Shown piece by piece: positions 38,901 to 64,000 of a stretch of DNA of 64,000 nucleotides. A program made the translations under genes and the position numbers. This DNA is from Psilocybe cubensis (taxonomy: Eukaryota): positions 1,922,001 to 1,986,000 of the forward strand of contig CM039009.1 in NCBI GenBank assembly GCA_017499595.2. Direction: 5' to 3'. Below the pieces are notes generated by a model. The model saw only the letters and a list, made by a program, of their open reading frames with translations. It had not been told where the DNA came from and searched no databases. Positions within the stretch are counted from its first letter, which is position 1, and each line of letters opens with the position of its first letter.

Positions 38901-39267
38901 GATAATCCGCCGACAGAGCAGTCAACGCACGCCGAAGACATTGTCCTGTGGCTTCCATCAATGGTACCCGCAGAATGCAGAGAAACTATCTGTGTGGCCG
39001 GCTTGGCTGATGTCGAACAGAAGCTGCGGATGGCGCATATGACCGACTCTTTGAATGCAATACGGCAGATTCTCAAAATCAAGTCACGAATGATTGAATT
39101 CAAAAATAAAAACATACGAGGACAACGTGGGGGAACCAGGTCAACGTCAGTTATCGACCGCGTGCATGAGCGTGCACGATTTGCAGCAGGAAAATATCGT
39201 GCAGCTCGGAAAGCTTATTTCGAGTTGGCAGGACCTGGTAACTGGGAGCAGAATTACCGTATACTTG

Positions 39268-39715
39268 TGTCAGGGCAACACTATAATCAGTGTGACAAGG
39301 CCACCAACAAAGATTAAGCAAGAGAGAGAGAGAGAGCAGAGGGAGAGTAAGAGAGCAAAGAGAGAATAAGAGAGTGAGATAGATTCAATGGTTCTAAGAG
39401 ATCACACCAATGATAGTGGATATCCTAAGAGATTGAAGCTGAAGCTACAGCTACCTACAAGTCCAGTATTTATACTCTACAGCTATTCTAGAATATTCCC
39501 TACATTACATCATAAAGGAAGGTTAAAGAATAAAAGTGACATCATATAGAAAAAGGATGAGTAAGACTAGGAATCATATAGAATTTACTAGAAAGAAGTG
39601 GACCAAGAAGGCTGTGATGAAAGAAATAAACTATCTAATCAGATAATTGATAAGATAATGAAAGGATAAGATAATTCTGTGAAGATAAAGAGGGAAAACT
39701 GGAGAAACCCTGACA
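39268..39715 (-). repeat. 3' LTR
   Basis: TGTCAGGG..CCCTGACA; same sequence as 45196-45643. Confidence 0.95.
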
Positions 39716-42700: not shown

Positions 42701-43603
42701 ATGATCCCAAGGCTTTCTGTCTGGTAGCCTATCAAAAGATTCCTTTGAAAAAACACCTTTAAACTGATGATAGTGCTTAGGAACAGTTTCTTCAAAGGTT
42801 TTTTTAGGGGAATCAGCTTGCTGATGAGACTCTTCTGCTAATCTTTGAGACATAGTAGAAGTAGCATTAATAGACTGCTTCTGAGGATGAAGGTATGAGA
42901 TAAAAATTCTATCCTCAGGCTCAATCTCAGAATCAGAAGAATCTTCAATAGAATCATCTTCTTCTTCATCAAATTGAGGGAGTTTCCTCCTTTTGACTGC
43001 AGCTATTTTCTGCCTCTTTCTTCTGGCTCTTTTGGCTTCCATTTGGCAGTCAGAGGGACATCTAATAAACTGGACATCCCCTGTCTTCCAATCAACATCT
43101 GGATTATGGTGCCAAAGCCAAGTATGTCCAATGATAGCAGATTTGTCTCCCAAGTCACAAACAGCAAAGGTGGCCCTTTCTGTATGGTTTTTGTGTACCA
43201 TAATTAAGTCTACTTCCTCATGGATAGAGCCACTCTTGTTGAGAGTACCATCAACATTATAGACTGGAATGGCTCTAGAAAGTTTCCTTGTGTTGAGATT
43301 ATGATACTTCACAAAACCAGAATGCAGAAAGAGGCCAGTAGCTCCAGAATCAAGCAAAGCATCAACAGATAACCTTTTCTCTGTGTCCATTGTCTTTAAG
43401 ATGACAGACAAATGGGTAGAGGTTTTAGGATTATGGTTGAGGATGTAGATCTTTTCAGGGAAGGTAGAAAGAGAGGAAGAAGAAGACATGATTTCTGCAC
43501 CAGAATCTGAAGACTGAGGATCAAGTCTGTCAATTTCATTTTCTAGTACATTAAATCTATTCCATTGGGACATGTCTTTCACCAATGGTGCTTCTAAAAA
43601 TTT
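39716..43603 (-). CDS. pol: Pol polyprotein: protease, RT, RNase H, integrase, chromodomain
   Basis: LLDSGAT; YMDD; HH-CC zinc finger (HHDAFIAGH..CDRC); integrase core; chromodomain WEVEFI..QYLVKWKNY..TWEP; entered by -1 frameshift. Confidence 0.97.
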   Translation of the reverse strand, partial: KFLEAPLVKDMSQWNRFNVLENEIDRLDPQSSDSGAEIMSSSSSLSTFPEKIYILNHNPKTSTHLSVILKTMDTEKRLSVDALLDSGATGLFLHSGFVKYHNLNTRKLSRAIPVYNVDGTLNKSGSIHEEVDLIMVHKNHTERATFAVCDLGDKSAIIGHTWLWHHNPDVDWKTGDVQFIRCPSDCQMEAKRARRKRQKIAAVKRRKLPQFDEEEDDSIEDSSDSEIEPEDRIFISYLHPQKQSINATSTMSQRLAEESHQQADSPKKTFEETVPKHYHQFKGVFSKESFDRLPDRKPWDHAIELKPGSEPYRSKIYPLSPNEQKELDAFLEENLKSGRIRPSKSPMASPVFFVKKKDGSLRLVQDYRKLNEMTIKNSYPLPLISDIITKLSKAKYFTKLDVRWGFNNVRIKKGDEWKAAFRTNRGLFEPLVMFFGLTNSPATFQTMMNDIFIELIDGNVVIVYMDDILIFTETLDHHREVVKQVLQILEQNKLYLKAEKCEFEKEKIEYLGLIISQGRIEMDPVKVEGVSKWPEPENVKDVQSFLGFVNFYRRFIEDFADIAKPLHELTKKGTVWRWSLRQQEAFDQLKKKVTSSPVLIFPDDNKPYKVEADSSDYATGAVLSQEGSDGKWHPVAFMSKSLSEVERNYEIHDKEMLAIIRALDEWRHYLEGTQHSFEIWTDHKNLEYFMVAQKLSRRQARWSLFLSRFDFTLHHRPGKRSLKPDALSRRPDHKKGENDNQNVVLLKPSYFKIQALKQGHATITGAENDLLKKIREAKEMDEKVVKAVQELKKSSTKKIEGQEWSEEQGLILYRGKVYVPKDKDLRRKIVELHHDAFIAGHPGKWKTIELVSRNYWWPGMSHFIAAYTRGCDRCNRTKTFPAKPLGLLIPTEIPSDVWQCISVDFIMGLPECQGYNAIMVVVDRLSKMIHIIPTTDEVTSEGTARLYRDYVWKHHGLPIKILCDRGPQFVSRFMKELNSILGIQTASSTAYHPQTDGQTERVNQEIEQYLRLFINHRQDDWVEWLALAEFSYNNRVQASTRQTPFMLNNGRHPRMGTEPLRDSKMDTVDTFVKNMEEARKEAESALRKAADDMAKFYNRHRGTPTQYKVGDLVWLDGKDLKTDRPSKKLDDKRYGPYKITKVISPNAYELKLPSTMKIHPVFNVVKLLPYHPDIVGRKPPSRPPPVIQGENPEWEVEFIKDSRLFRNKLQYLVKWKNYPNEECTWEPAEHLKNASKAIKDFHAKHPSAPRRISAVTFDRLSFTPIINFTEPPPLLKPSKLTHPCAHCGKCALERG

Positions 43604-44703
43604 TTCTTTTCCTCATCTTTCTGCTCCTTGCCTTCCAAGATTAATTTCCCAAAGTAGTCAGCCAGTTCTTCATGGGTCATAGCATTGATGTTAACTGATG
43701 ACCTGCAGTTTACAGCCTTATGACCAGGCTTTCTGCACTTGAAGCAAACAATTGGCCTAACTGACTTCCATCCAGAGTCAACCTCCATGGGAACTACATC
43801 TGGTTGCTTTGCCTGAGCACCAAAGGTCCTAGAGCTGCTATTGGAAAAGACTGGAGGATTTGGAGTAGGCTTAGGAACAGCCTTGGGAGTTGGGGCTTTA
43901 AGGAAGGGAGAAGAAGAGGAGGAGGAAAGAGACTTGGTAAAGGCCTCACTCTGTCTCCACTGCCTATCTAGCCTGGTACTCCATTTAATCCATCCATCCA
44001 AGGTTTTGGGCATGTCAGGAACATAGTAGACTGCATTCCTGAGATTTTCATTAAGCCCAGCCTTGAATTGGTCTACCAAAGCAGCATCATTATACCCAGT
44101 ATCTGAGATCAGAGCCCTGAAGCTAGCAACATACTCATCAGCAGTCTGTCTGCCTTGCTTGAGCATGTGCATTTTATGCTTAGCTGTGTTGGAGGGGTCT
44201 GGATCTGCAAACACTTCCCTAAATTCATAAACAAAGTCAGCCCAAAGACCTTCTTGGGACTGAGCATTGTCTATTACTTTAGTCTTCTCATATGCCCACT
44301 TCCCAGCAGTACCTCCTTTCATATGAGATAGAGCACAAATAACTTTCTGAAAGTCATCTGTAATCCCTTTCCCATAGAAATATAATTTAAGCTGACTGAG
44401 GAAGTTTTCTGCCTTCTCCATAGAACCATCAAATGGATCTGGAGGTGAGACTTTAATGACAGAGTGTGAACAGGAAGGGGCAATATGAGGGGTAGGGAAA
44501 GAGTGAATATCTAGAGCAGCAGGTGGTGGTGGTGGTGGTGGTGATGGTGACTGACTGACTGGTTGCTGAGGGTGTGGTGGAGTGGATGATGACTGCTGCT
44601 GCTGTCTAAGAAAATTCAACTCTTGGGTAAGGAGCTGGACCTGATGCATGAGCTCTTCCACAGAAGGAGTGGTGGGAGGCAATTGGGAGGGGTCCATGTC
44701 CAT
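43594..44703 (-). CDS. gag: Gag with CCHC zinc knuckle
   Basis: PDPFDG, LKQGRQTADEYVASF, PMEVD, CFKCRKPGHKAVNC. Confidence 0.93.
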   Translation of the reverse strand: MDMDPSQLPPTTPSVEELMHQVQLLTQELNFLRQQQQSSSTPPHPQQPVSQSPSPPPPPPPAALDIHSFPTPHIAPSCSHSVIKVSPPDPFDGSMEKAENFLSQLKLYFYGKGITDDFQKVICALSHMKGGTAGKWAYEKTKVIDNAQSQEGLWADFVYEFREVFADPDPSNTAKHKMHMLKQGRQTADEYVASFRALISDTGYNDAALVDQFKAGLNENLRNAVYYVPDMPKTLDGWIKWSTRLDRQWRQSEAFTKSLSSSSSSPFLKAPTPKAVPKPTPNPPVFSNSSSRTFGAQAKQPDVVPMEVDSGWKSVRPIVCFKCRKPGHKAVNCRSSVNINAMTHEELADYFGKLILEGKEQKDEEKKNF

Positions 44704-45195
44704 GGGTAGGGGTAGGTAGGCTCTCTGATGTGTGTGTGGGAGAAGCTATCTACTGAAAGTGCCCTTGAAACTATACTAAGTATTCTAAAAAAAATATCTA
44801 TCTACTGGATACCCAGTTGTCACACCACTCAGGGCTCTAAACCTAGGATCACAGGGTTACTGGATATTTCCTAGACCACCAAAAACAGAACACTAGTAGG
44901 ACTGTGTCTGCCCCAACAGTTGGTATCCCTATCTACTAAGTTTACACACAGCACACAACAGAGAGTAGGAAAGATGATGAGCCAAAGATCTTGAGGAAAG
45001 GTCTTGAGGAGGATGTTGAAGATTGGTGGAGATGTAGAGATTGGTAAGAAGATTGGTGAAGAGGTTGATGAAGAGGTTGGTGGGTTGGAAGTGGAGGAAG
45101 AAGGTTGAGGTAATGGTGTTGAAGAGGTTGAAGAGGTGAAGAGTTTGGTGTTGAAAGAGAGATGGTGGAGTTGTCTTGAGAGAGCTTCAATCTTC

Positions 45196-45643
45196 TGTCA
45201 GGGCAACACTATAATCAGTGTGACAAGGCCACCAACAAAGATTAAGCAAGAGAGAGAGAGAGAGCAGAGGGAGAGTAAGAGAGCAAAGAGAGAATAAGAG
45301 AGTGAGATAGATTCAATGGTTCTAAGAGATCACACCAATGATAGTGGATATCCTAAGAGATTGAAGCTGAAGCTACAGCTACCTACAAGTCCAGTATTTA
45401 TACTCTACAGCTATTCTAGAATATTCCCTACATTACATCATAAAGGAAGGTTAAAGAATAAAAGTGACATCATATAGAAAAAGGATGAGTAAGACTAGGA
45501 ATCATATAGAATTTACTAGAAAGAAGTGGACCAAGAAGGCTGTGATGAAAGAAATAAACTATCTAATCAGATAATTGATAAGATAATGAAAGGATAAGAT
45601 AATTCTGTGAAGATAAAGAGGGAAAACTGGAGAAACCCTGACA
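45196..45643 (-). repeat. 5' LTR (minus-strand TATAAATA at ~45395-45402)
   Basis: Same sequence as 39268-39715; followed on the minus strand by a PBS complementary to the LTR itself. Confidence 0.95.
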
Positions 45644-47081: not shown

Positions 47082-48960
47082 ATTTTGGAAGAGTTTCCCT
47101 AAATCCTTTGACGATTTATCTACTTGTGATATCTCTTACTCAAGTAACGTAAGTTAGACTTAATTCGCCCTTGTCAAACATTCTAAGAACATCATTGGAA
47201 AGCACTTTCATCACCCCGCCTTGAGCTATCATCACCGCTCTTGGTTTGGCAACTCCTCACATGCGTAAGTCCATCTTGCCTAGGTTAGAACATTGTTAAC
47301 AACGCCTCACAGCAATTATACCATCCCGCCTTGAACCAATACCGTCAGTATCATCGTCCTAAAAGCCACTAACCAACCCCACACAACGCAGGCTCGCCCA
47401 CACACAATGGTCAAGAAGCCCAGCACAGAAGTATACCACTCCATTCAGGTCGCGTATTGCCAGTCTGCTGGTGTCAGGCTGGTGTGCGCGATTGTCTTAG
47501 GACATGCGGGGCAGTTGACATTTGACCCTACCCGCTCGATGTGTGGCACCCCCCCGCCGCCACCCCTGTAAATCGGGGGTCGTGGAAACCAGGGGGTGAG
47601 GTACGGAGTGCTGGTTGGTTCGCCCACCCCCCTAAGCAGTAGCGGTAGACTTGCAGGACATCGTCGCTTCTACCGTGAATCGCAGGGGTGGAGATTGATA
47701 AAAGCTTGCTTTGGACCCTGTGTGTTGGGCGGGCTTAGGCGAGTGATGGTTGGCGTGAGGTCAGTTTGCTTCTTTTCGTTGTTTGATACGGTTTATTTAT
47801 TTATTCCTAGCCTCGGGCGATAACCAGCACGATGCTGCAAACCATTGATCGCAATACAATAACACGTTTTGTTCCTCGAGATCAACGCGTCCCAATTGCT
47901 TACCATTTTGTGCCATAGCATCAATGTTTGGTTGGACATGGGTCATCATCTTACAGAAAGAGCGCTTCAGTGAGTTTCGTACTTCCATCAGTCTTTGCAC
48001 TGGTAACATTATGTAGATTTAGAAACCCTCGACATATTCGAGATCAATCTTTGCTCTGTCTTTCTTTGGAAAGATCATGACTGGTGTGTTCAGTTACATC
48101 CTCCCACAACCGTCTAATTTCGTTCGTGTAAGGCTCGCATTTCTCATTTTCCCATCAAACATAAACACCGGCACTCGCAATTCCAACGACATGGACGAGG
48201 TCCTTGTCGCAAGTCACACCATCGCCGCGCAGCCACTTGTAGTCACGTCAGATCTTGGGGCATCTGGTTCCCTTTTACTTGTGAGTCCGTTCCCTGAGAT
48301 TATCATTTCTTCTAAAGGACAATCACCTCATTATGTATCCATCAGGTGTTTTTTCTTTTTTTATTTCGTTTTTATTTTATTTTTGAAGTAGTTGTAACGT
48401 TACGCACCAGGTCGTTGCGTCGAAAGATCTCTTTCTAGGGAAGTTCCAGGTCTACTTTGATTGAATGCCTCATTCTAATATGCCAGGTATTCAGGACTCG
48501 GTTTAACCACGCGAACCTCAGTGTAATCCCCAACTCCGGCATACACTGTCACACAAGAACTTTGCAGTTATAATCCGCCCTACAATTCTTCTAATCCGTA
48601 CAACCTGTCAACATCAGGCTCTTTCAAACACAAAAGGCAATAAACTACAACTGGAGCCGCCTCTAGCTTTATAAAACACCAAGTCTCAAAAGATCTAATG
48701 CGTCTGACCTTCTCATTTTATGTACGTTGATACGCAGTGCAGCTTGCTAACCACGGAAATCGCGCGCACCAAGTCCACTTTCCCACGCTTCACATGATCG
48801 CGGAACATCAATACACCACCGACATCGCCCACCGACACCGATATTCCTCGCTCCCGATTCAATTACTCATTTATTTCTCATCACCATTCCATTTTGTATG
48901 CGTCTTCGTAATATTTTAACAAATTTTCTTCATTTTAAAACCTGAATTTCATATACAGCA
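47082..48960 (+). repeat. Family R copy D, 3' part (core exon 47392-47759)
   Basis: Inverted relative to A, B and C; core near-identical to A/C, downstream exons closer to copy B. Confidence 0.85.
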
Positions 48961-49716
48961 CAGCTTTCATTTTACCCACACTTTCCGAGTAGACACAATA
49001 GGCGCCCGATTTCGCACCCTTGCCGTTTCCTCCCCATCCGAGAAAATTTTACAATTTAATTAATCTACTTCTTCTGTAGACTTACTCATAGTGTCTTGGC
49101 CTCCATATTTCGTGTTCGCTTCGCTTATCTCTTTACAAACTTTGTTTTACACACACACCCCAGCTCAGTAGTATAAAAACTAGCTAGAAAATTATCTACA
49201 CAATAACACATCGTTCACCTCTCGTTTCCATCGTGCTCTCATCGTTTTCAGCTGGTTAAGAAGACCAGGGAAACCCTCTCGCACCCTCAGACGCCTCTCA
49301 TAGCGGTTCTCCAGTTGCTTTTACTTGTTTACTCTTTTTTTGTTTGCTCGACGCACCTAGGACGCCGCTGGCACATCATTTTTGGAGCCCACCGCGAGGG
49401 TGTTTCAAACATTGAGCCTTCAACCAGCCGTTCGCTTCGACAGCTTCCGTCTAGAACCCTTCGTCAAGAACTAGTTGCTGCCTTCCAAAACCCAGAAAAC
49501 CTTTCAGACGAATCACTATTCATTGAAGTACCCGAAAATCAAGCCACTCATTCGTATCTACCATCTCCAACATCACCTCTATTCTCTCCATCTGAACTCC
49601 CTTCCCCTATATCCGGATCCTTTGAATTTCCAACCACAACACACTCGCATATCAGTCCTTTCATTCTAACACCTTCTCCAACCTCAAACACCCTTCAACT
49701 CCCATTGCAACAGTTT

Positions 49717-52011
49717 ATGCCCCAGCCTGAAGCTGCTACCATGTCTCCACACATGCCAGCTCGAGGTGATCGCAGTGCACCATCATTTGATCCCACAAAG
49801 CCCAGGGAGCTTTGCCGTTATTTTTCCGACCTAGAATTCTTGTTTTCAATCTCAAATGTCACCGATGATACGGAACAGAAGAAGCATGCGGTTAGATACG
49901 TCAGTCTTGACGTTGCAGACATCTGGGAAACGCTTCCAGAGTTCACCAACCCTCTCAAGAATTACCAGAGCTTCAAAGCGGCTGTTATGGACCTTTACCC
50001 CGATGCTAATGACGCATACAGGTACACCATGTCAGACATGGATTTATTAATTGGAAACCGTCAACGTTTAGGCATCCACACCCTCTCTGATCTCGCAGAA
50101 TATCATTCCCAGTATATGGCGGTCACAAACTTCCTATGCTCGAAATCCAAGCTGTCTACACTGGAACAGAAGCGTGGTTATGTTCGTGCATTCCAACCGG
50201 CGCTTTGGGCAAAGATTTCGCAACGATTGCAACTCAAGAAGCCTGACCATTACCCAGACGAGCCCTACGACATAATCGACGTCCAGACAGCTGCAAAATT
50301 TGTTTTACATGGCACCCACACAGCAAGCGCTTTGGCAATCCCTTCTTCTACTCCTACAGCTTCTATCCCCGACGTCTCAATTAAACCAGAGCAACTCGGT
50401 TCTATATTCACAGAATTTACCAAATCGATTATAGAGGCGCTTAATAGTACTCAGAATCGCTCAAGATCAACAGAACCAACCACTCAATCTGGAATCCGAG
50501 AAGTCAAATGCAATTTCTGTGGAAAGGATCATTATATTCGTAACTGCGACCTCGTTGAAGAGTATAGGCGCGCTGGAAAGTTAAAGCGCAACACAGAAGG
50601 CAAAATTGTACTCCCCTCAGGTGCATTCATCCCCAGAGACATCCCTGGCACCTTAATGAAGGAAAGAATCAATGAATGGCATCGTCGCAACCCAAATCAA
50701 CTTGCTACAGCTACTCTATCCGCCAGTACATTATTTGGTGCGGTTTCGTCAGTTCAAACGCCTTTGGAATCGTTAAGCGCCCGTCAGACAATCCAGTTGA
50801 CATACCACCTTACTGCTGACGATAGGATCACTTTGCTAGAGGCTGAACTCTTCAATCTGCGTGCCAAACGACCTGGGTTCACTCCAATTATTCGTACTCG
50901 AGCACAGAAAGAAAGGGCACCCGTTGCTGAAGAAGACAGAGAGATTTCGCCACCTAGAGACTCTGAAGCACCCAAACCGTCTACTTCTACTCCAGATACC
51001 TCGTCTCAGCCTCCCATGGTTCAAAATAACGATATAACTGCGCCCAGAGCGACTACAGACGATCCTCAAACGGAACATCCGTTCAGAAACGCATTAGACG
51101 CCGTGTATATGCCTCCTCAGTCCAGAAATGTTGCAGCACTTCCAAAGCCCGCACCCAAGAAGAACGAACCGGCCTATCGAACATTCCCCCCCATCTACGA
51201 CTCTGACGTTGCCAATACAGTGTATAATCGGTCTCTTGAAGCTCCAGTCACCATTACTCAAAGGGAACTTCTGTCTATCGCTCCAGAGATCCGTTCACAA
51301 TACAGGGATTCCACAACGTCTAAACGCAGTGCAAACACGGATAAAATAGCTCAGACAAACCTGTTGGAAAACAGGGCGGACCCTACAAGCAATACAGTTG
51401 TTTTCAATGCCTCCACAGTGCATCCTTTGCCCTCCAGCCAGCACCGAAGTCCCCCAGAAGGTTCTACAGTTATTGACGACCCCTTTGACATTTATTATCG
51501 CTCCCTTCGCCCTGGACAACACCCCGACCCCAACAAAATTATTGTGGCTAAGGAATCTTCAGCACTTCGTTCAATCTATCCTATTGTTGACAACTCTCTC
51601 AAAGTGGAATGTATTCTTGATCCTGGCTGCCAGATAATAGCTATGTCTGAAGATGTTTGCCATAGCCTCTCCCTCATCTATGACCCGACTATCAAACTCA
51701 ACATGCAGTCTGCAAATGGCACAGTGGACCAGTCTCTAGGCCTCGCTTGAAACGTCCCCTTCTTGATAGGAAATCTCACCTTCTACATGCAGGTTCATAT
51801 TATCCGAGAGCCCGCATATGACATACTCTTTGGACGACCATTTGACATCCTAACCCAGAGTGTAGTCCGAAACTTTGCTAATGAAGACCAAACCATTACC
51901 ATTAACGATCCCAACACTGGTCAAACTGCAACTATACCCACCTCGCCTCGTGGACCACCTAGATTCCTCAAGAAAACTCACCACCATTGCCACGAACACC
52001 AGGATTTTTAA
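49717..52011 (+). pseudogene. gag: Gag-protease with premature TGA at 51748-51750
   Basis: CNFCGKDHYIRNC knuckle; aspartic protease ILDPGCQII..ILFGRPF continues in frame after the stop. Confidence 0.85.
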
Positions 52012-54692
52012 TATCCGAGGGTCTAGGTTCTGATAGCGACATTCTTGCTCTCAATATTTGCACTGAAGAAGGCCATATTTATATTCAAGCTACTCAAGAA
52101 CTAGACTCCTCGGAACATCCTCAAGCCTCGTATTTTACCGCCTGTACCATAAATTCTGATTCCACACCCAAAGCTATCAATTCCAACACTCTTATTTCGT
52201 TGTCTCCCTCGTCTAACAGTTTATTCCACCCAGTTTCTAACGTTTCCACTCAAAATTTCGACCCAGTTTCAACGTTTGCAGCGTCTAAGAAGAAGTACAA
52301 GCCCGTAGCCAAGAAGACTCGCCCTGTTTACGCAGAATTACCCGAAAAATATCGCATAGTTCGCAATATTTCAGGCAACCCACTCGCTAACCTTCCCATT
52401 CTCAACCCAAACCCACCCGATTTTGTACCAACCGGCCGCTATACTGAAGAGAGAATGAAGCAGTTCGATGAAGTACACACCCCAGGATTCCTCTGGACCG
52501 AAGAACGAAAATTATTACACCATTTCATGATGCAACATCAAGAAGCTTTCGCATGGAACGATACAGAAAGAGGTCACTTCAGGGAAGACTTCTTTCCCCC
52601 AGTGAACATCCCAGTTATTCCTCACAAACCTTGGGTACAGCGCAATCGACCCATTCCTCCTGGTATCTATGACGAACTCTGCAAGTTATTACAGAAGAAA
52701 ATTGACGCTGGTGTCCTTGAGCGATCCAATTCTCCGTACCGAGGAGCATGGTTTACAGTCACTAAAAAGGATGGCAAGTCTCTACGAATTGTACAATCCC
52801 TAGAACCATTAAACGCCGTCACAATAGCACACTCTGGAGTGCCTCCCTTCACAGAACAGCTCGTAGAACAGTTTGCTGCAAGAGCATGCGGTGGAATGCT
52901 GGATTTATTTGTTGGATACGATGAACGGGCGCTTGCTGAATCCTCCCACGATTATACCACTTTCCAGACGCCTTTTGGCGCCCTCCGACTTACCACACTT
53001 CCAATGGGATGGACCAACTCGGTCCCCATCTTCCACGACGACGTTACATACATTTTACAGCCAGAAATTCCGCACACAACCATTCCTTACATCGACGACG
53101 TCCCAGTTAGAGGCCCAGCTACTCGATACATATTGCCTTCTGGAGACTTTGAAACAATTCCCGAAAACCCAGGAATTAGGCGGTTTATTTGGGAGCACTT
53201 CCAGGGACTCAGTTGTGTTGTCCAACGCATGAAATATTCCGGCGGAACGTTCTCTGGTTTCAAGTCGCTACTCTGTGGACCAGAAATAACAGTGCTAGGC
53301 CATCGTTGCACTTATGAAGGCCGTCTCCCAGATCTGAGCAGAGTTTCCGCTATTGTGAACTGGGGACCATGCTCAGACCTATCCGACGTTCGATCCTTTC
53401 TTGGTACCATGGGTGTTTGTAGAATATTCATTCGGAACTTTTCCCATCGTGCTAATCCTCTCATTAAACTCACCCGCAAGAACCAACCGTTTGAATGGAC
53501 TCAAGAACAAGAAAAAGCGCAGCAAGACCTTAAGGAAGCACTCCTGAAATCACCAGCCCTTCGTCCCATCGACCACTCATCCCCAGCACCAGTCATTCTT
53601 GCAGTTGACACGTCTAAAGATGCTGTGGGACACTTACTCTGTCAGTGCGATTTACAGAACCCCCGCATTCGATATTATTCAAGATTTGGATCCATTACTC
53701 TAAACAAACGTGAAGCGCGATTCTCTCAACCAAAACTCGAGTTATACGGCCTCTTTCGCGCATTTCGAGCCCTCAAACTTTACCTCATCGGTGTACGAAA
53801 TCTTGTCGTCGAAGTAGATGCGAAATACATCAAGGGGATGCTTTCCAACCCAGACCTTGCCCCTTCTGCAAGTATTAACCGATGGATTACAGCGATTTTA
53901 ATGTTTCATTTTGATCTAGTTCATGTACCAGGTACTCACCACGGACCAGACGGATTATCACGCCGAAAACCACAGCCAGGAGACGAGCCCGAGCCTGAAG
54001 ACGACTTCGAAGACTGGATCGATGAAATGCAAGGTTTTATGCATATTCTGAATCCCATTACCACAGCACTCACTGTGCAAGTTCCAACACTCGTATACTC
54101 CACCTCCCTCGCGCCAGAACCATCTCCCTCAGAAAATAACGACCATTCTACACCAAATACATCATCCGACGACTCCCAGACTTCCTATTCCATTATTCCT
54201 CAATCCGACGTTGCACACAAGGCTGATGAACGCACATTAAAGGTCAAAACATGGCACGAAACGCTTAAGCGCCCAGACGGCATGACGGACTCGGAATATT
54301 CGACATTCCTTCGTTACTGCACAGAATTCTTTGTGGCATCGGATAGACTATGGAGAAAGGATCACCATGGACATCATAAGCTCGTCGTACCCATAGAGCG
54401 ACGTTTATTCATTATTTCTTCAGCTCACAACGACGTTGGACACCATGGATTCTTTGCTACAAACTCACTAATAACAGAACGATACTGGTGGCCTTACATG
54501 GGCTTTGATATCGCTTGGTTCATTCGTACCTGCCACCTCTGTCAACTTCGTCGTACCCAGAACGTTCTAATCCCACCAACCGTTGCAATTCCAGCTCCAC
54601 TCTTCGCCAAAGTCTTTCTAGACACAATGCACCTTCCCCCATCTGGAGGCTACAAATACATCATCCAAGCTCGATGTTCGCTTTGCCACTTC
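52002..54692 (+). pseudogene. pol: Pol (RT, RNase H, N-terminal integrase), 3'-truncated
   Basis: LPMGWTNS, YIDD, LAVDTS, HNDVGHHG..CHLC; homology ends at ARCSLCHF. Confidence 0.88.
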
Positions 54693-54917
54693 CATCAGCA
54701 ATACCGGGGCCAAGTAGGTAATGATCCGTAGTGATACGTAATTCTGTAGTGCCCATAGTAACGGTCCCATTTGGGTAACACACACTGATGTACCTGTAGC
54801 TTGGTACCAACGTGACATGGTACTCTGTAGTGATCTGTATTGTAACGCGAGTGCTGTGTAGCGGCGTGTAGCATGCTTACCATGGTCCATACCCCTCTGT
54901 ATACAACTGACATACAA

Positions 54918-54989
54918 ATTGTAGCATACTACCACAGATTTGTAGCATGCTACCACAGATTTGTAGCATGCTACCACAGATTTGTAGCA
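54918..54989. repeat. 21-bp tandem repeat, ~3.4 copies
   Basis: (ATTTGTAGCATGCTACCACAG)n, each with a palindromic GTAGCATGCTAC core. Confidence 0.9.
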
Positions 54990-55257
54990 CATCATAACAC
55001 ACTGCAAATAGGTACAAAGGCATATATAGTATCCACTTTCATTTGTATAGTGTTGTGTGGCTATTCCTGCAAGTGCCAATATCACACTGAAAACCGAACC
55101 ATTTTTGACTAAAATGGGCAATTTTAAAAATAGATAATCTATGTTTGGATCGGACCAAACATGTTTCTATTAGTAGATGCATAACTATTAATACGTGACG
55201 ATCTAAATATGGTATCTTCTAATCCACACCCGGCAGCTGCCCCGCTCATTCACCCAA

Positions 55258-57999
55258 CTACCCTTCTGGACCGTAATCTAGTTCCTCCTGTGGGATAGAA
55301 TGGAGAGTCATCCTATAAGGGTTGGGGGGGTTCTTCGTAGGCCTCATAATAGCACTGATTATGGAGATCTAAATGATGCAAAGAAAGAAATGAATAAAAA
55401 AAGATACACACCATCCTTCCTCAGCCACTTCCCTACATAAGCGAGCCAAGCGAGGACCTTGGTTCAAGGTATCCTTCTCTGCCTCTGCTGCAACCAACAT
55501 GCAGGCATCATACCTCAGGGAGTACTCCTCTCCCTTGAATTCAATACCCGAACACGGACCACCTCTTGCAGGGTCAATCCCATCCCTCCACTCCTCAAGA
55601 CAGTTGTGGATCTACAGCAAAATGCTTGTTAGCAAGGCAGTGCCAATAGCAGGAGAGAAATCAGAACTACACAACTGGCCACAAGCGCAAATGCTTTGTG
55701 GGGAAGCGATGTCTTGAAGAAATCCGTCTTTGTCTCCAGACCTTTGATGGGGACTGCAACCCCTTTTGTAGGATGGTAGAAGAAGTCCAGACAGATCTTC
55801 TTCACAAAAGGATGTCCAAATGGGACATCGTGATACTGGAAACAAATCAATGAGTGGTAAGCCAGGTAAAATGGACGGCGAACTCACTCGGGTTTTGGCA
55901 ACACCCCGGTGGTATTTACCATTGAGTAGCCAATATGCTACCCTGTCCTTGATGTATTCGATCTCCCCCATCTGATTTTCAAACATATTGGGGTTCGCGG
56001 CGATGACCTCCGACGGGACTTCGAGGCCATACGCATTTTTGACCAGGGGTCTGATCATCGTCTTCAGTCTTCCCCGGAAGGTTGACGCGTAGACAAATGC
56101 CTAATGAGAACAGACACGTTAGTACGATATCCTTAAAAGAACACGCTAAAAATATACCGTTACGGCGGTATTCCTGTCTAGGAGCGTTTTTTTCTCTGCA
56201 AAGTTATGTAAACCAATTAACTAAAATCACAGAAGACAGAACTTACTATCAGGCAACACTTTATCCGTGTTCATTCTTTCAAACACGGTTACTGCCATCT
56301 TCACACATCCATCGGCGACTAATAAGTGATTTTCCCGAGTGGGAAAGGGGACCTCCTCTACTACATACAGGCACATCAGTTTGCGTGCAATTTTGAGCAC
56401 ATCTTTCCAGTAACCAGTAAAGGATGCAACTGAATGCTTGGATACTTCCCTAGCAGAAGAAGTACTGGACTTCTTATGAGCGATGTGTGCCTCACCAAGC
56501 ACCTCATCATCGTCAGATGCTTCGTTGTTCTCCCTTGTCAAACCTTGGGATACGGCTCCTTGCGAAACAGCCGCCTTGCGCAATGCCTCAGGGCGAGGTG
56601 GCTTGTTCGCCCGATTACGACGACGGTGTTCTTGAAGAACATCCTCTACTTCCACAACCTATATCAATAATACATTAGCTAGACATTAAATACAGCAGAG
56701 AAATGATTACATGGGGGGAAGGCTGGCGGAGCAATGCCCTTGCTCTCCTCTCCTCTTCATCATCGGAAACTTCATCAACCACTGTCAAACATAGGTGGTA
56801 AGCAAACACGACATAAAGGTGGAGTTAAACCAACGCTGGGCAGCAGGCTCTTCATCATCTTGACCCGCGTCGTCGTAACCTTCATCACCGTCGACATATT
56901 GGAGAGCTTCTTCATCCCCAATATTCTCTTCATCAATTCCTTGCATGCATTCGTCCCCTGATGCTTCCTCAGATCGCCTTTCACCGTCACTATCCCCCTC
57001 TTCCTCCTCCTCATCTTCCTCCTGCTCTATGCCTTCGTAATCTTGTTGCTCCTCCTCGTCTTGATGGCTGATGCTAGCCTCTTGGTGGGCGTTATAGGCT
57101 GCTGGATGCACTGGCTGTTGTACGGGGGCATGTTGTGTTACAGGATGCACTGGTTGTTGTACGGGGGCATCGTAGTATTGGACAGAATTCTCTGCCGCAG
57201 GGGCAGCGTAACGCTGAACAGGATTTGCTGCGTGTTGTACAGGGCGCGGGACAGGATGTGCTGCATGTTGTACGGGGCGCGGGACAGGATGTGCTGGCTG
57301 TTGTACCGGAGCAGCGGGGCGCTGGATGGGGGCAGTGGGTCTTTGGACAGCATGATCAAGCTCTGAGTGCTCCTGATTTCTCTGAGCTGCACGTTGGATC
57401 TGGACAGGAGGGGGGGCACCCTGAGATTGTCGTGGGCTTGGTTGGACTTGTTGGACATCCCAAGGAGCAACTGAAGGCGTTGGCCTTGGTTGCATTTGAA
57501 TAGGGGGACCTACATGCGACACAACGGTAACCTAGACGTGCTTGGAAGATAGCAAATTTAAGATTAGAACAGTAGACTCACCCCATTGCGAGGTTTCTTC
57601 AAGGGAGGCGCCATCTCATTTTCAGGCATGGCGCTAGTATCCACATTGGCGGCCCTTGACTTCCTCTTCCCAGCCTTCTCGAAGTCAATAAAAATGATGT
57701 TAGATGTTTTCTCCTGCCGAGCATTTACTCCACCAAGACCACGGGTGCTTCGGATAGGACGGCCATTGGGGTCTTTTTAATAAGGAGTTCAGTGAATCTC
57801 AACAAAGAAAATGCTAGTACAGACCTGCTTCAGGAGCCTGAGGTGGCTCGTTTTCTGCCACGGAGCTCGGACCCTGTTCAACCTCTTGTCCTAGATGGAT
57901 AAAACATTAAGTATGCGGATGTAATGAGGATATATAGATGATACCTTCAACCGTGGCATTGACAACCGCCTTTTTCTTTTTGGATCCTTTAGGTGGCAT
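55258..57999 (-). CDS. Multi-exon protein with Q/P-rich and acidic N-terminus and a DUF6532-like C-terminal domain
   Basis: MPPKGSKKKK start; PFPTRE..STFRGRLKTMIRPLVKNAYGL..PFGHPFVKK..LPHKAFALVASC|IHNCLEEWRDG..FKGEEY pattern. Family assignment is from memory. Confidence 0.6.
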
Positions 58000-58793
58000 A
58001 TTGGGCTGGTTTGACGGTTGTAATGCAGAAATAGAGACAAGGGGTGGTGAATTATGTCAAGCTACGATCCGGAGGTATGCGAAATTAGCATCTTTTCAAA
58101 ATTTAAGGCGACGGACATCAGTCAAAAATATATCGTGCCATATAGAAATTACAGGTACTGAAACAGTACCCCTATCTACTACAATATATCACATATACAT
58201 TATAGTCAGATTCCATGTCCTACTTAGAGTTAAGTAAAGTTACATCTCAGAGGGGAAAAGACTGCACCTATCATGATCGCGGATTATCCTGAGGGTGCAT
58301 TAGAATAGGTATTCCCCGACTAATGAGGGATACCCGTAGACGGGCGATTTCGAGCTGGGTTTCAAACAGAAGATCTTCATTGGATTTATATGCTCGCATA
58401 ATGTCGTCCATATAACAACGTAGCTCTGCCTGAACTTCTAGACACCTCTGTTCAGTGAGTTGAAATTGGTCAAGAGCCTTTTTAACGGCCTCTATGCCTT
58501 GATTCTAGAGGAAGGTGGATTAAAACATGAAAATAGACCTAAAACGAAGAACTCTGCCTCTTCGGGTATGCTAGGGAGGCGGCGACTTTGAGGTTGCGAA
58601 GCGTTGTTGCTATTGGAATGGTTCATGATAAAGATAGGCAACAATTTGGTGTGGTGGTGGTGGCTTAAGTTCAAGACGATCAACACATTACGAACCATTA
58701 GCACTGTTGATTGCCGAAATACACTTAAATAGAATGACATAAAACCCGTATATGTCTACAAGTCCGTGTTCGAGATACAAGTAATGCTGCACC

Positions 58794-61052
58794 CTACATA
58801 TTTACAACTTTGACACCACGGGACGGGGGGAAGATTTGAATCAAAGATGTTGTCGGAAAAGTTGGGAATGTATCACCGCGTTTCATACGAGTAACGGGAT
58901 ATTTATGTACAACGCAAATATCCTTGTCTATTGATCGTATCCTGAATATAATCCCCATTGAATCGCCCTCAAGCGGTGTAACGAAGTCGTCCTTTTTTAC
59001 AGGATGAATTGGAAACAACACTGATTTCGGTAATGTCAGTGTACGTCCCAGTAATGCTAGGTGGGCAGTATCGTCGGTAAGGCTGAGAAGTTCCATCGCC
59101 ACTTGATGGTCGCCCTTGGATTTGTCTACGACTTTTAATCGTAATCCTTTCAGCTTATCGTATTTCGTATCTAGCCAGTGAGCGACGGTTGAGGGTAGTT
59201 CTGCGATTTCCACCGCCGAGTGTACAGGTATTGCTGAATACGGATTCCATGCAGGAGACAGAAAACTTGCTACTGTGGACGGCATTGGAGTTGCTCCACC
59301 AGAAGGCCCGGGGTCTTGAGCGGAATTTATATGTTCTCGGTTGCTTGAAACAATGTCAGTAAGCACCTGACAGTCAACGAATCAAGTGAAACCACATACT
59401 GTATAATTAAATGTGATATTTTAATACGTTCCACCCTCTGGTTACGAGCTTCCAGCTCAACGTCTGCAAAGCCGTCGGGGGTAGTGCTTTTAACGATGCC
59501 ATAGTACCCCTTGAATGTATTATTCCCGACAACGATGACACTCAAACCTATATAGACGTCGTTGTGGTCTCTTTCTCCAAGCTTTGACGAATGACGCTTT
59601 CGCGGGCGAAGAGTAGCATGGGCAGGGGGGACGTAGAATATGACTGTGTGGATGGGCACAATGACCTGAAAAATGTGTTGAACACTACTGAGACAAAGAG
59701 AATGACAGTTCACCTACTTCGCGTTCGTGCTCTGGGGCGATAATACAAACAGATCTTCCATCAAAGTCTGACACCCATCCATGGAGATCTTTGTGATCCC
59801 CTTCAACGACTTCAACACTATCGCCTATCTGGAAAGCTGCACGTAGATCGTGTAGTGCAACTGCTTGTGTTATACCTTGGGAGGGGATGTGCACTTCCAC
59901 CTCAGCGTCAGAAACACTCTTGACCGTTCCAAAAAGACCTAAGTATTCTCCACCAATAATTTTGACTCGATCATATCGTTTCAGTCGAGTCATGGAGATG
60001 GCTTTCGAGGCTTGCGCTAAGGTCTCCGTCGTTACAAATGGACACTCGCGAAATTGCTCCAACTCGGACGATGTTGGGAGGACATTGGAAAGATATTTGA
60101 GATCGATGGCGTCGAAATCCGTGATAATAAATCCATCCTGGAATATCCTGTCGAGGTGCGATTTCTTGATGTTGTCCGGAGGTCTGGGGATAAGAACAAC
60201 ACTTTTCCGACCCTGGAATGTGAACACAAGGCCGGTAGCATTTGCGTAGGTCGTCCAAGCCTTACGCTTTCCAGCAACCTTGACCCACGATTGGTCTTCA
60301 GGGCGTGAGGGTGGGGGATGAGATAGGATCTCCATACATCTCTCCGAGGATAGCCTAACTAAATGTGTCGGATTAAGCTCTCTAACGAGGCAGGCTAACG
60401 TATGCGCATGTTGCATTGATGGCGCCTCGACGTAGATTCTCCCAGGAATTGAGGATTGAGCGAAGACAGACCGGGCAAGGATGATGGGAAATGTAGGGTT
60501 CGTTGACATCTGCATAATTTTGAAAGCGACGGCCTCTTCGCGTCCAACCTATCACTCGTAAGGTGATCAATAAATGCTGACTGAAGACTTATATTATTTT
60601 TGCGTACCTTGCAACCTATTTCATACATGATATCAGTCGCGGAAGGCATATAATTATTATCACCAAGTCCTCCTGGTTGGGGATTGCCATATTTCTGTAT
60701 AAGTTCTCGTGAACTAGATGGCTCTATATCATTGTCAGGACGAATTTTCATGCGTGAAGGCAGAAGCATGGGCAACAAATCGCTCCATTCATCAGCGTTA
60801 TCTGTATTTTGCATGGCATGATATAGCCGAGAGTGTGCAACACGTTCCTCATCCTCAGAGAATTCATCGTTATCATTCACTGTATGTCAGAACCCATTAG
60901 CATCAGTACATATTGAGCAGAATATATGTAAATTATTGGAACATACGTAGTTGGCCCCCTTCATAATCAAGCTCTTCCGAACTTTCATCATCATCGGAAA
61001 CCGCTGCTTCAATGTCTATGAAGGGATTAATGTCCTGATTTTTTGAGATCAT
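58794..61052 (-). CDS. Spt5-like protein (NGN domain + several KOW motifs), multi-exon, divergent paralog
   Basis: NPFIDIEAAVSDDDE; EIGCK|VGREEAVAFKIM; SVFAQSSIPGRIYVEA; KOW motifs YDRVKIIGGEYLGLFGTV, FQIGDSVEVVEGDHKDLHGWV, IGLSVIVVGNNTFKGYYGIVK. Confidence 0.8.
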
Positions 61053-61293
61053 AATTAAATTTCCCTGAAGTTAGTGATTAGATGGAGGGTTGGATTAGTA
61101 CACACTGTGCGGTTGCCTAGGCTGTCAAGTCGTCTGCGTTTATAACTAGACATTGTGGGTCTTAAAGACTGTTAATCGATGTTCATCTCACTTAATTTAT
61201 CATCTTAACTTGTGATAATTTATTTTTAGATACTACACAACCTATTACTATGATAAGACGCTATGATGAACGGAAAGAGAAAACATATGGTGA

Positions 61294-61494
61294 GAAACAC
61301 GCTATTTCCGGAGCGATTCTTTAGGGTAGGTTTCCCGTCCTGAAGTCACGAGTTGGTTAAAAAAACGCCCCCTTACATCAGCCGCATCACCGTCACGGTG
61401 ATGCGGCTGATGTAAGGGGGCGTTTTTTTAACCAACTCGTGACTTCAGGACGGGAAACCTACCCTAAAGAATCGCTCCGGAAATAGCGTGTTTC
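61294..61494. repeat. Perfect palindrome: 100-bp arms, 1-nt spacer at 61394
   Basis: 61294-61393 is the exact reverse complement of 61395-61494; imperfect extension to ~61258/61530. Confidence 0.95.
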
Positions 61495-61699
61495 CAACTT
61501 GATTGTTTTTCTTTCCGTTCGTCATAGCGTAGTACCCCTCCCCATAGATTTAACATACATTCTAATAAAATAGACATAGACAATACTCTAGACACTCTAT
61601 AATAGTTTTCGTTCAGTTAAAATTCATCTAGTTGAAAATTTGAGACACCAGAAAAAAACACACAAAAAAAAGTAAGTACCCAAAGAAATAGAATGCAGG

Positions 61700-64000
61700 G
61701 TGAGACGTTGAAGTTTTGTAGTGCAAGCCCAGAAGATTTCCCCCGTTGCCCGACTCCAAGCTGAAGAAATTCTGGCGTTTCCCTTCGAAACGCAGGTCGT
61801 TCGTCAGACTCTGGAAAACATGTTGCCAGAGTCGCACCCACTCCGCGTAGGTCTTAATTGGATTGCCATTTATGGTACTAATATCAAGTTTCTGTAGAGG
61901 ATGGTGGATTTCCTCCGACGATATGAGGACTTCACCTTTTTGAATTACGATGTTTCATCATCGAGCATGCGAGCGGCCATCAAGTATAGGCAAAGCTTGG
62001 CTGCCCTTCAGAACAGCATCGTAGAGACACCCTGCGTAACCTCGGCTACATGGGAGCAGGCGGGTAGCTTATTTGCAGCATACCGTCTACTCGATCTCGT
62101 AGCGTTGTGGCCAGCAGCCTTTGGACCATCGTTGCCGGTGACCGTGCCCCTGAATGAAATACAGGCCAGCACAGGAACTAAGGAAATATTTTCACGGTTC
62201 AAGGTATGCGATCATGAAGTCACTCAATGTTAATTCTTAATTTTCAAACAATTATTGTAGCTTGTAGATGACTTGAAGGACTGGCCGGCAATGCTCTGCT
62301 CTGCCAGGAAGCGCATCCTCAGAGCCGACTCTAAGTCGCACAGAAACATCAACACCCCTTCTATCAGTGACACGCCGTCATCCGCTTTCACCCAGGGCGG
62401 GCCCTCGGAATCAACGCTATTACTCTGTCTGGCGCGTAACCACTTCAAGGGTGTTGTGGGGAAAATAATCGGGAATGTGTACTGCGCCTCGCTACACTAC
62501 CAAATCTTGTCAGGAATGCGCGGTATGAAGGACGATGAACACGTTCTACCAGACATTCCAACGGACACGGCTACTCTTGCAAATCTCTAGTAAGTTTTCT
62601 TTCCTCTATTCATTGATACAATCTGCTCAACATACCCTAGTGCAAGCGGCCATCCTGATGCTGCGTTGTTCCTCTCAGAGGTCACGCCATCTCATTTAAA
62701 AATTCCTCTGCATGTCGCCCTTTTCATATCCCCCATCCTTCTTTTTGTGAATAAATCTTGGTATTCTAAGAAATGTGACCGGGAGCAGCTGCTTAAAGTA
62801 GGTGTATCCACATCCTCCCAGTTTAACTTGGATTAACGCACTCCTTTAGGCCTCAAAAGCGCTCGGTAATTGTCGCCCCCGTGTTCTGCGTGAAGTGGAG
62901 ATGGAAATTTGGAAAATCATTGCAGCGCAAAATTGCGACATCCAGTCAGCCTTATATAAACTTGTTATCTCAGACTGCTGGATGGAATGCGAGCGGGTAA
63001 TTGCACAAGATCCCGCGTTTCACTTTTTCATATGTGTGTTCTACGTACTGTAACAAAATAACAATTTAAACTAATAATTGGCCAGCGTCAACGAGCAGCG
63101 CCGAGGTTACAGCAAATTTTAACCTAGCAAGGCGCAGCACTGAACCACACGGTAAGTTATAAGCAAAGTCTGCGTCAATTACATGATTTAAATCCGTTTA
63201 AAACAGCTCAACTTCAGACCGTTTCCCATCATGGTGAAAAAACCACCTGTGAAGGGTCCGACGCAGACGCGGAGGGTGACGATGATCACGAAGTGGACAC
63301 GACAGAAATGGTCAGCATGGGTCAACGGGAGAACGGGGACAATACGGTCCCTACCTCAAATATACAGCCTCCGGAAGACACGTCTTCAGTGGCTGGCAAG
63401 GATGTCAGCATGGGTCAACAGGAGAACGGGGACAATACGGTCCCTACCTCAGATATACAGCCTCCGGAAGACACATCTTCGGTGGCTGGCAAGGATGTGC
63501 CCACGGACGAGCAACCTGGTTTGCCGCGGAGTGATGATATTGGATCTGGTCTACTTCAGACTGAGAATACTGGGCCCTCATCTGCAGGGGATTGTGAGAT
63601 GAACGTCGATCCGGAGCAAGCTGATGTCGACCATCAAATGGAGGATGGTCCACATACCAATGGTCCAGAAAATTTGGGAGATGGCGGGCTGGACAAGGAG
63701 CTGAAGGGTCTTCTGACGAGGCAAATCGTATGTCGGAAGTTCACGAGGGCGAAAAGCAGGGGCAAGACGGAGAACGACCCGACGAGGAGAACCGAATGTC
63801 AGAAGATGGTGAGGAGGAAAGGCCAGACGACAGTTCGTCGGACAATGAGACCGAGAAGCAGGGGCAAGGGGATGTTCCACCAGTCCAGGAGGACAGAATG
63901 TCGGTCGATGGAGAGGGGGTAGGCCCAGAGCAAAACAATGATTCCTCAGACATGGAGAGGAATACATTGGAAGACAGCCAAGGCGAAAAGGAGGGGGAGA
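61700..64000 (+). CDS. Multi-exon hypothetical protein with an acidic repeat region (start uncertain, runs off the window)
   Basis: Series of ORF segments separated by ~50-nt GT-AG introns; 93-bp tandem duplication at 63311-63496; apparent frameshift at ~63690. Confidence 0.55.

Follow-up and report, generated by a model that had tools for sequence, protein, structure and literature searches.

An intact Spt5-like gene of Psilocybe cubensis is carried as cargo by an autonomous, recently mobile cut-and-paste DNA transposon of the PlavakaB type, which has inserted into a Gypsy element. The gene lies in a stretch of 64,000 nucleotides, referred to here as the window, and is not alone: several transposon families of this genome (Plavaka, EnSpm and Helitron) carry Spt5 of the same short type. 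This suggests that such elements bring their own tool for transcription despite host silencing.

The carrier element and its Gypsy target

The carrier is 18,258 bp long and extends from window position 54693 to G000:C12:1994950, as delimited by DNA searches and by the common ends of its copies. The features of the insertion and of the cargo gene are as follows (window coordinates):

48728..49378, plus strand: 5' LTR of the recipient Gypsy element, identical at 651/651 positions to the 3' LTR past the window end
51963..54692, plus strand: Gypsy pol ORF (RT, RNase H, integrase zinc finger), its integrase cut by the insertion; from Pfam and the C7 copy
54691..54692, plus strand: 2-bp target-site duplication (TC), repeated past the element's right end
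54693..64000, no strand assigned: left half of the PlavakaB transposon, the rest continuing to the end given above
54693..54707, plus strand: left terminal inverted repeat, starting with CATCAG, an imperfect match to the right end
55400..57999, minus strand: multi-exon cargo gene, DUF6532-like (Pfam E=7e-5, below cut-off; approximate limits, set by eye)
58794..59343, minus strand: Spt5-like exon 5, with a single repeat remnant (GATP..SPAWNP), a KOW6/KOW7-like tandem domain and the stop codon
59400..59665, minus strand: Spt5-like exon 4, with a short linker in place of KOWx-KOW4, then KOW5
59718..60548, minus strand: Spt5-like exon 3, with most of the NGN, a shortened KOW1, KOW2 and KOW3
60608..60879, minus strand: Spt5-like exon 2, with the acidic region and the first NGN strand
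60947..61052, minus strand: Spt5-like exon 1, with the start codon and a histone-binding-type motif (F11-E15-V18)
61258..61530, no strand assigned: near-perfect palindrome of 273 bp, separating the start codon of the Spt5-like gene from its divergent neighbour (z = -33.6)
61690..64000, plus strand: divergent cargo gene region (ORFs, approximate limits), running toward a JmjC-like ORF beyond the window

The termini read CATCAG..CTGATG in all four copies examined and are flanked by 2-bp target-site duplications, TC in this copy and TG, CT and TG in the remaining three. PlavakaB elements are described as having 5'-CATCA..TGATG-3' termini and 2- or 3-bp duplications (Kojima 2025, PMC12730594, in part), and the carrier is assigned to PlavakaB by its termini, its duplications and its internal Plavaka transposase. 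The transposase, which lies inside the element ends in the part beyond the window, matches PF18759 (E=6e-64 and 1e-16) together with DUF6830 and occurs at 13 near-identical loci in the genome; the stop present in every copy of it sits, as read by eye, in a 45-nt GT..AG intron. Plavaka was reportedly first described by Iyer et al. 2014 (PNAS).

The Spt5-like gene itself is found in 14 copies at 99–100% identity, and the copies have distinct flanks and target-site duplications, on which ground an assembly artefact was rejected. A preliminary description of this DNA had placed the gene at 58794..61052, coordinates that are exact and are spanned by the five-exon model, on a putative transposon in DNA interrupting a Gypsy integrase. 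Both statements hold: the alignment with an uninterrupted Gypsy copy on G000:C7 stops where the insertion begins on the left and picks up again where it ends on the right, and the gene lies within a bounded, 14-copy element whose own transposase was found on following the element past the 64 kb, as had been proposed there along with the copy count. Because the two Gypsy LTRs are still identical and the C7 relative is uninterrupted, the insertion is very recent. The reverse arrangement was also seen, in that a Plavaka copy at G000:C11:518652-525065 (L020-L021) is split by a Gypsy element that shares 98.9% identity with its counterpart at window positions 39264-45643; with Gypsy inside Plavaka and Plavaka inside Gypsy, both families have been recently active and are mutually nested.

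The part of the element beyond the window also contains a JmjC-like ORF, so labelled from an HxD-type motif that was recognised by eye and that Pfam and PDB do not support, and a cyclin-like ORF (E=0.004, below cut-off). The divergent cargo region at 61690..64000 gave no Pfam match, and ORFs related to it are present from C12:1714578 onward. The JmjC-like ORF and the gene preceding it (L013:1676-3193) recur at 47–64% protein identity at C12:1714578 and C2:612689, a two-copy repeat with no Plavaka transposase match in 30 kb. The centre of the palindrome starts with CATCAG and ends with CTGATG, like the element termini, and the copies at C6:3593235 and C7:2689728 are without about 115–125 bp of it. 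Outside the element, window positions 24388-27540 hold an open frame of 1050 aa with a weak vWA match (E=4e-5).

Many Plavaka-like loci of the genome have no Spt5-NGN match nearby, as judged by coordinates, so transposition does not, in general, depend on the Spt5-like gene. In a diverged relative on C4, 9 kb were checked and contained nothing that matches Spt5.

Gene model and domain architecture

On the minus strand, from 61052 to 58794, the computational splice model gives five exons and an intact open frame of 674 aa closed by a TAG at 58794. Its four introns are all GT..AG and measure 67, 59, 52 and 56 nt. Two sequencing runs covering the element contain no intron joints and behave as DNA. 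Two other runs, presumed to be RNA, had no contigs on the element, which their strain may lack. In a public annotation, the product of a sister copy (P0152, 603 aa) skips exon 4 and has a different start from the five-exon model.

Exon 3 matches the Pfam domains Spt5-NGN (E=4e-5; 23.9 bits at a cut-off of 22.4), KOW2_Spt5 (E=3e-13) and KOW (E=9e-8), and exon 4 matches KOW5_SPT5 (E=2e-6). All 14 matches at E<=0.1 in a PDB sequence search with P0152 are Spt5. The arrangement that marks the Spt5/NusG family, an NGN followed by KOW domains, is thus present in the cargo protein by Pfam, PDB sequences and fold, and so are the acidic N-terminus, the NGN and the at least three KOW motifs read earlier from the letters.

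The acidic N-terminus contains a histone-binding motif, F-x3-E-x2-V, formed by F11, E15 and V18; the corresponding residues of yeast Spt5 are F180, E184 and V187 (PMC8886531, in part). Among 24 long homologues the F and E are found in 20, and F, E and V together in 12. A conserved glutamate of the NGN, which we take to be the Spt4-capping residue, is present in 71 of the 81 non-canonical alignment rows.

KOW1 of the Plavaka-borne protein is shorter than even in other proteins of the short type. For KOWx there is no Pfam match, and a short spacer stands in its place: between KOW3 and KOW5 it spans 35–103 aa in 20/20 full-length short-type rows as opposed to 189–190 aa in 5/5 host rows, a count made without P0152, P0123 (truncated) and two rows that do not belong to the short type. 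The preliminary description had noted no C-terminal repeat region. The array is indeed lost, but one SPAWNP motif is kept at aa 521, followed by the KOW6-KOW7-like domain. With one spurious match excluded, a single PAW-type motif is found in 15 of 23 homologues and never more than one, while five of seven host proteins have two to four. This C-terminal domain resembles that of the host protein only marginally in BLAST (E=0.01), and its single-sequence fold has a pLDDT of 37. The only GW dipeptide, at aa 383, lies inside a strand of KOW3, and there is no WG/GW repeat tail.

Relation to the host SPT5 and origin of the gene

The host SPT5 (P0153) is a single-copy gene on G000:C13 encoding 1136 aa with the domains Spt5_N, KOW1-5, KOWx and CTD. 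A search of the genome for NGN domains returned 32 matches, a strong one to this gene and 31 divergent ones; only one Spt4 gene was found. Identity of the cargo gene with the host SPT5 was rejected on these grounds, and the earlier view that it is not the single-copy syntenic SPT5 holds, with 14 copies of the one and the other standing alone on C13. Also borne out is the earlier remark that the protein is shorter and more divergent than canonical Spt5, since it has 674 residues versus 1136 and, in the three BLAST blocks that align best, shares 24–27% identity with the host protein. Orthologues of the host SPT5 are 67–90% identical to it over the core exon, with one listed match at 56%. The KOWx-KOW4 region of the host protein, aa 556-664, is without a counterpart in the cargo protein, and four SPAWNP-type motifs are found in P0153 by the same pattern that finds one in the cargo protein.

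The host gene has nine introns and the cargo gene four. Three of these coincide in position, at K126/K199, E403/E535 (phase 0) and codon 492/761 (phase 2), and the first cargo intron has the same phase as its host counterpart and lies two codons off, in the acidic tract. The host introns missing from the cargo gene fall in regions that it has lost. From this match it follows that the cargo gene was probably captured from a fungal SPT5 as DNA; capture by an ancestral element is well supported, the origin resting on the introns. Equally well supported is what came afterwards: KOWx-KOW4 and most repeats were lost from the captured copy, which diverged while under purifying selection and passed from one transposon superfamily to another. 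A retrocopy origin was rejected because the introns are kept, and transfer of a bacterial or archaeal NusG because of the eukaryotic domains and the introns.

In a tree of 38 rows chosen from 114, the phylogeny against the true SPT5 that the preliminary description had called for, the short-type proteins form long branches separate from all full-length Spt5 (SH-aLRT 97) and are not nested in the host agaric SPT5. Long-branch effects could be the cause of this split.

Other Spt5-like genes in this genome and beyond

Apart from the host gene, the genome has 32 Spt5-like loci (the 31 divergent NGN matches and one further locus), which fall into eight groups. Seven of the eight lie within, or at most about 11 kb from, a DNA transposase or RepHel gene. 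Besides the Plavaka group there are one Helitron group, five groups in or near EnSpm elements and one unplaced.

The Helitron, of 23 kb and from a family with seven NGN matches, has a RepHel frame of 2808 aa directly upstream (L089:193-8616). An EnSpm/CACTA element of 38.9 kb at G000:C6:3225475-3264414 (L129, L096-L099) has terminal inverted repeats of 1.67 kb, and its group contains five NGN matches; this element also carries a ferric-reductase-like ORF. A 29-kb EnSpm has two NGN matches, and a relative of this element is 85–96% identical to it. For two more Spt5-like loci the distance to an EnSpm transposase is 5 and about 11 kb, and a search for the ends of these elements (F7 and F8) did not find them. 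The remaining locus is fragmentary and looks broken, and a scan of the long ORFs around it revealed no transposase. In the tree, the Helitron-borne copy clusters with EnSpm-borne copies (SH-aLRT 100), and the nearest in-genome relative of the Plavaka copy is EnSpm-adjacent.

Similar short Spt5-like proteins are found across gilled mushrooms. An exhaustive protein search returned 360 clusters at E<=0.001, some of them ordinary Spt5; word-indexed protein searches with exon 3 and P0152 gave no match, nor did a metagenome scan with P0007. Of the 30 clusters that were looked up, 23 come from genera of the Agaricales, one is from Gregarina and six are entries without an organism. Probably, many of the agaric genes that databases list as SPT5 belong to transposons.

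Eleven metagenomic loci have a full or partial Spt5-like gene. In the long ones the Spt5-like gene is followed by a transposase-like gene, a block that is common to them at 82–92% identity, and two loci have flanking inverted repeats. These loci suggest that the transposon linkage may extend outside this genome. In a soil metagenome (L140:4060-8258), the gene adjoining the Spt5-like gene is intron-rich and transposase-like; it has no Pfam match, an HMM match at E=0.2 and 15 dispersed matches in the Psilocybe genome at 38–40%. In Agrocybe chaxingu, a single gene model (P0006, 2041 aa) fuses a region resembling Spt5 with one that matches TET/JBP weakly (E=6e-7, below cut-off), a hint that Spt5-like and TET/JBP cargo can be neighbours.

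Selection and decay of the copies

In a related pair of EnSpm subfamilies, dN/dS is 0.30 and 0.23 for two Spt5-like exons versus 0.19 for the transposase, and a deeper pair has a dN/dS of 0.15 with dS near saturation. These figures describe related pairs only, dS of the Plavaka-borne gene being saturated against its nearest in-genome relative.

The 13 other copies of the Plavaka-borne gene include one with a premature stop and none with an indel in the aligned part. Among the copies there are 46 distinct exonic variants, of which 35 are CpG transitions, CpG bases making up 11% of the coding sequence; 11 of the 46 are synonymous, as 84 of the 224 possible CpG transitions would be. No sign of purifying selection was seen among the variants of the 14 copies, as is expected after insertion. 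When four complete elements are compared, CpG transitions account for 26 of the 44 substitutions. The inserted copies are therefore probably methylated and drift neutrally, while the lineage has been under selection, and we infer that this is the pattern expected of a gene serving the element.

Predicted structure and pairing with Spt4

The AlphaFold2 (AF2) model was made on P0152, which is without exon 4, from an alignment of 115 rows, 24 of them canonical or canonical-like; its mean pLDDT is 76 and its pTM 0.46. The top 29 Foldseek matches of this model are Spt5 chains of Pol II complexes, and it also matches KOW6-7 (5ohq, E=5e-7), KOW2-3 (4ytl, rmsd 2.3) and NGN (2exu).

When the NGN was predicted together with the 36-aa middle exon of the host Spt4, the score was 0.36 versus 0.01 for the best control (a fragment of Spt4, alignment not used), the runs agreeing in at least 82% of the contacts with a partner pLDDT of at least 69. 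The scoring mark is reached by 51 of 78 solved pairs and two of 108 mismatched pairs, and at scores of 0.60 or lower by five of the 78 solved pairs and all four passing mismatches. As a like complex has already been solved, the pass may be memory. The predicted contact of the NGN with the host Spt4 is a putative one, with weak support.

Proposed mechanism and alternatives

In canonical Spt5, the NGN and KOW1 form a DNA clamp, KOWx-4 and the linker form an RNA clamp that governs pause release, and phosphorylation of the repeats governs PAF1C recruitment and termination (review, PMC9467590). The cargo protein would pair with the host's single Spt4 and occupy the Spt5 site on the Pol II clamp. 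Having kept the DNA clamp (NGN, KOW1), KOW2/3, KOW5 and the histone hand-over, it could support elongation without stripping nucleosomes, and it would do so without the KOWx-4 RNA-clamp/pause linker and without the repeat array on which host kinases, phosphatases, termination or silencing factors act. Pol II with the cargo Spt5 would then be harder to pause or terminate, and a long, CpG-methylated element would thereby express its transposase and other genes. Judged from sequence, the chances are about even that the gene supplies a Pol II elongation factor of the element's own, which helps element genes to escape premature termination or silencing. The processivity or anti-silencing role put forward in the preliminary description would fit the conserved Pol II-, Spt4- and histone-facing features, the purifying selection in relatives and the CpG-biased decay.

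A more specific version is tentative and would more probably turn out wrong than right. Here large DNA transposons of gilled mushrooms would encode a eukaryotic counterpart of RfaH. This alternative subunit of DSIF would have been captured from the host a single time and exchanged since then between Plavaka, EnSpm and Helitron elements; it would be loaded selectively at element promoters, with the palindrome as a possible signal, to make Pol II resistant to pausing, termination and co-transcriptional silencing. The upstream palindrome is a candidate for such a recruitment signal.

The main rival is a decoy or damper, which would bind Pol II or Spt4 in non-productive complexes and either hold back the aberrant transcripts on which RNAi and methylation of the element draw or limit its own activity. 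It accounts for the loss of KOWx-4 and most repeats and finds parallels in yeasts. Truncation of the Spt5 repeat array enhances heterochromatin in fission yeast (PMC10659198, in part), which counts against an activating role, and in budding yeast, Spt5 mutants with Pol II binding intact have dominant effects, those without the histone motif being dominant-lethal (PMC8886531, in part). The dominant lethality also makes sense of the retention of that motif. However, the histone motif, KOW5 and KOW6/7 have been kept under selection, as one would sooner expect of a functional elongation factor than of a poison, and the decoy is considered rather improbable. Unlikely, too, is a Pol II-independent accessory of transposition that binds nucleic acids or chromatin, for example in end binding or target choice. 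KOW domains do bind nucleic acids and the divergence in sequence is extreme, but the protein is carried both by DDE cut-and-paste elements and by a rolling-circle Helitron, whose mechanisms and ends differ, and the core residues of the NGN are conserved.

A specialised paralogue of benefit to the host, like plant SPT5L or ciliate Spt5m and merely residing in transposons, has precedents (PMC3111484, PMC5416832, both in part) and would agree with the wide occurrence of the family in gilled mushrooms. It is quite unlikely given that seven of the eight groups are transposase-linked and the eighth looks broken, with no transposon-free, single-copy short-type locus among them, that the copies decay neutrally and that the WG/GW tail is missing. 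The idea of a neutral passenger, a captured host gene fragment carried without function as pack-type cargo, is largely refuted and very unlikely: the neutral look of the variants within the family is what it would predict, but a five-exon open frame survives although identity to the donor is down to about 25%, many genera share one internal deletion, dN/dS is 0.15–0.30 in related pairs, and 13 of the 14 copies are without a stop or indel in the aligned part.

If an element-supplied elongation factor is indeed at work, a transposon would possess a variant of the single elongation factor that is conserved universally, and the polymerase would be the very site of the conflict with the host. In addition, the family amounts to a deletion series of Spt5 made by nature, in which KOWx-4 and the array are gone while the histone motif, KOW5 and KOW6/7 are kept; this makes the roles of the parts directly testable in yeast or Coprinopsis.

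Comparison with known systems

The cargo protein resembles canonical Spt5, the large subunit of DSIF, in its acidic N-terminus, NGN, KOW1-3, KOW5, repeat, C-terminal KOW pair and histone motif, and in four intron positions, three of them exact. It differs in being without KOWx-KOW4, in having one repeat and not an array, in its length of 674 versus 1136 aa, and in being multi-copy and mobile.

SPT5L has an Argonaute-binding WG/GW tail. The single GW of the cargo protein lies within a KOW domain and no such tail follows, so the likeness to plant SPT5L/KTF1 drawn in the preliminary description is poor; SPT5L is a host silencing factor. Plant SPT5L/KTF1 and Paramecium Spt5m do share with the cargo protein that they are divergent Spt5 paralogues linked to transposon control (PMC3111484, PMC5416832, both in part), but they are host genes for silencing or small-RNA production.

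The carrier agrees with published PlavakaB elements in termini, 2-bp target-site duplication, Plavaka transposase and agaric host, while the accessory gene followed in the available part of that paper is TET/JBP (PMC12730594). TET/JBP dioxygenases are shared among unrelated fungal DNA-transposon superfamilies, including Helitrons, and are proposed to counter silencing (PMC12730594, in part). The spread of the Spt5-like gene mirrors this reported shuttling of one accessory family across unrelated superfamilies, but TET/JBP acts enzymatically on DNA methylation, whereas the Spt5-like cargo is related to a core Pol II elongation factor. Plant VANC is a transposon anti-silencing factor, and the factors of this kind that are known act on DNA methylation or chromatin. 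The words "Spt5" and "KOW" are absent from the text and one supplement of PMC12730594, and "Spt5" is absent from a paper on Helitrons of Pleurotus and from one on transposons of Marasmius. Searches of mostly open-access full texts turned up no description of an Spt5 encoded by a transposon. While the element class is known, the Spt5 cargo and its spread across superfamilies appear to be undescribed.

A functional parallel is bacterial RfaH and plasmid PrfaH, where a NusG/Spt5-family protein encoded on a mobile element uses the housekeeping site on the polymerase and foreign DNA is expressed (PMC7819879, PMC11880322, both in part). RfaH belongs to another kingdom, has a different architecture and is recruited by the ops DNA signal (PMC7819879, in part). 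By analogy, and with the balance standing near the middle, the function of the Spt5-like cargo would be a eukaryotic analogue of that of plasmid-borne RfaH, the cargo protein not being a member of that family.
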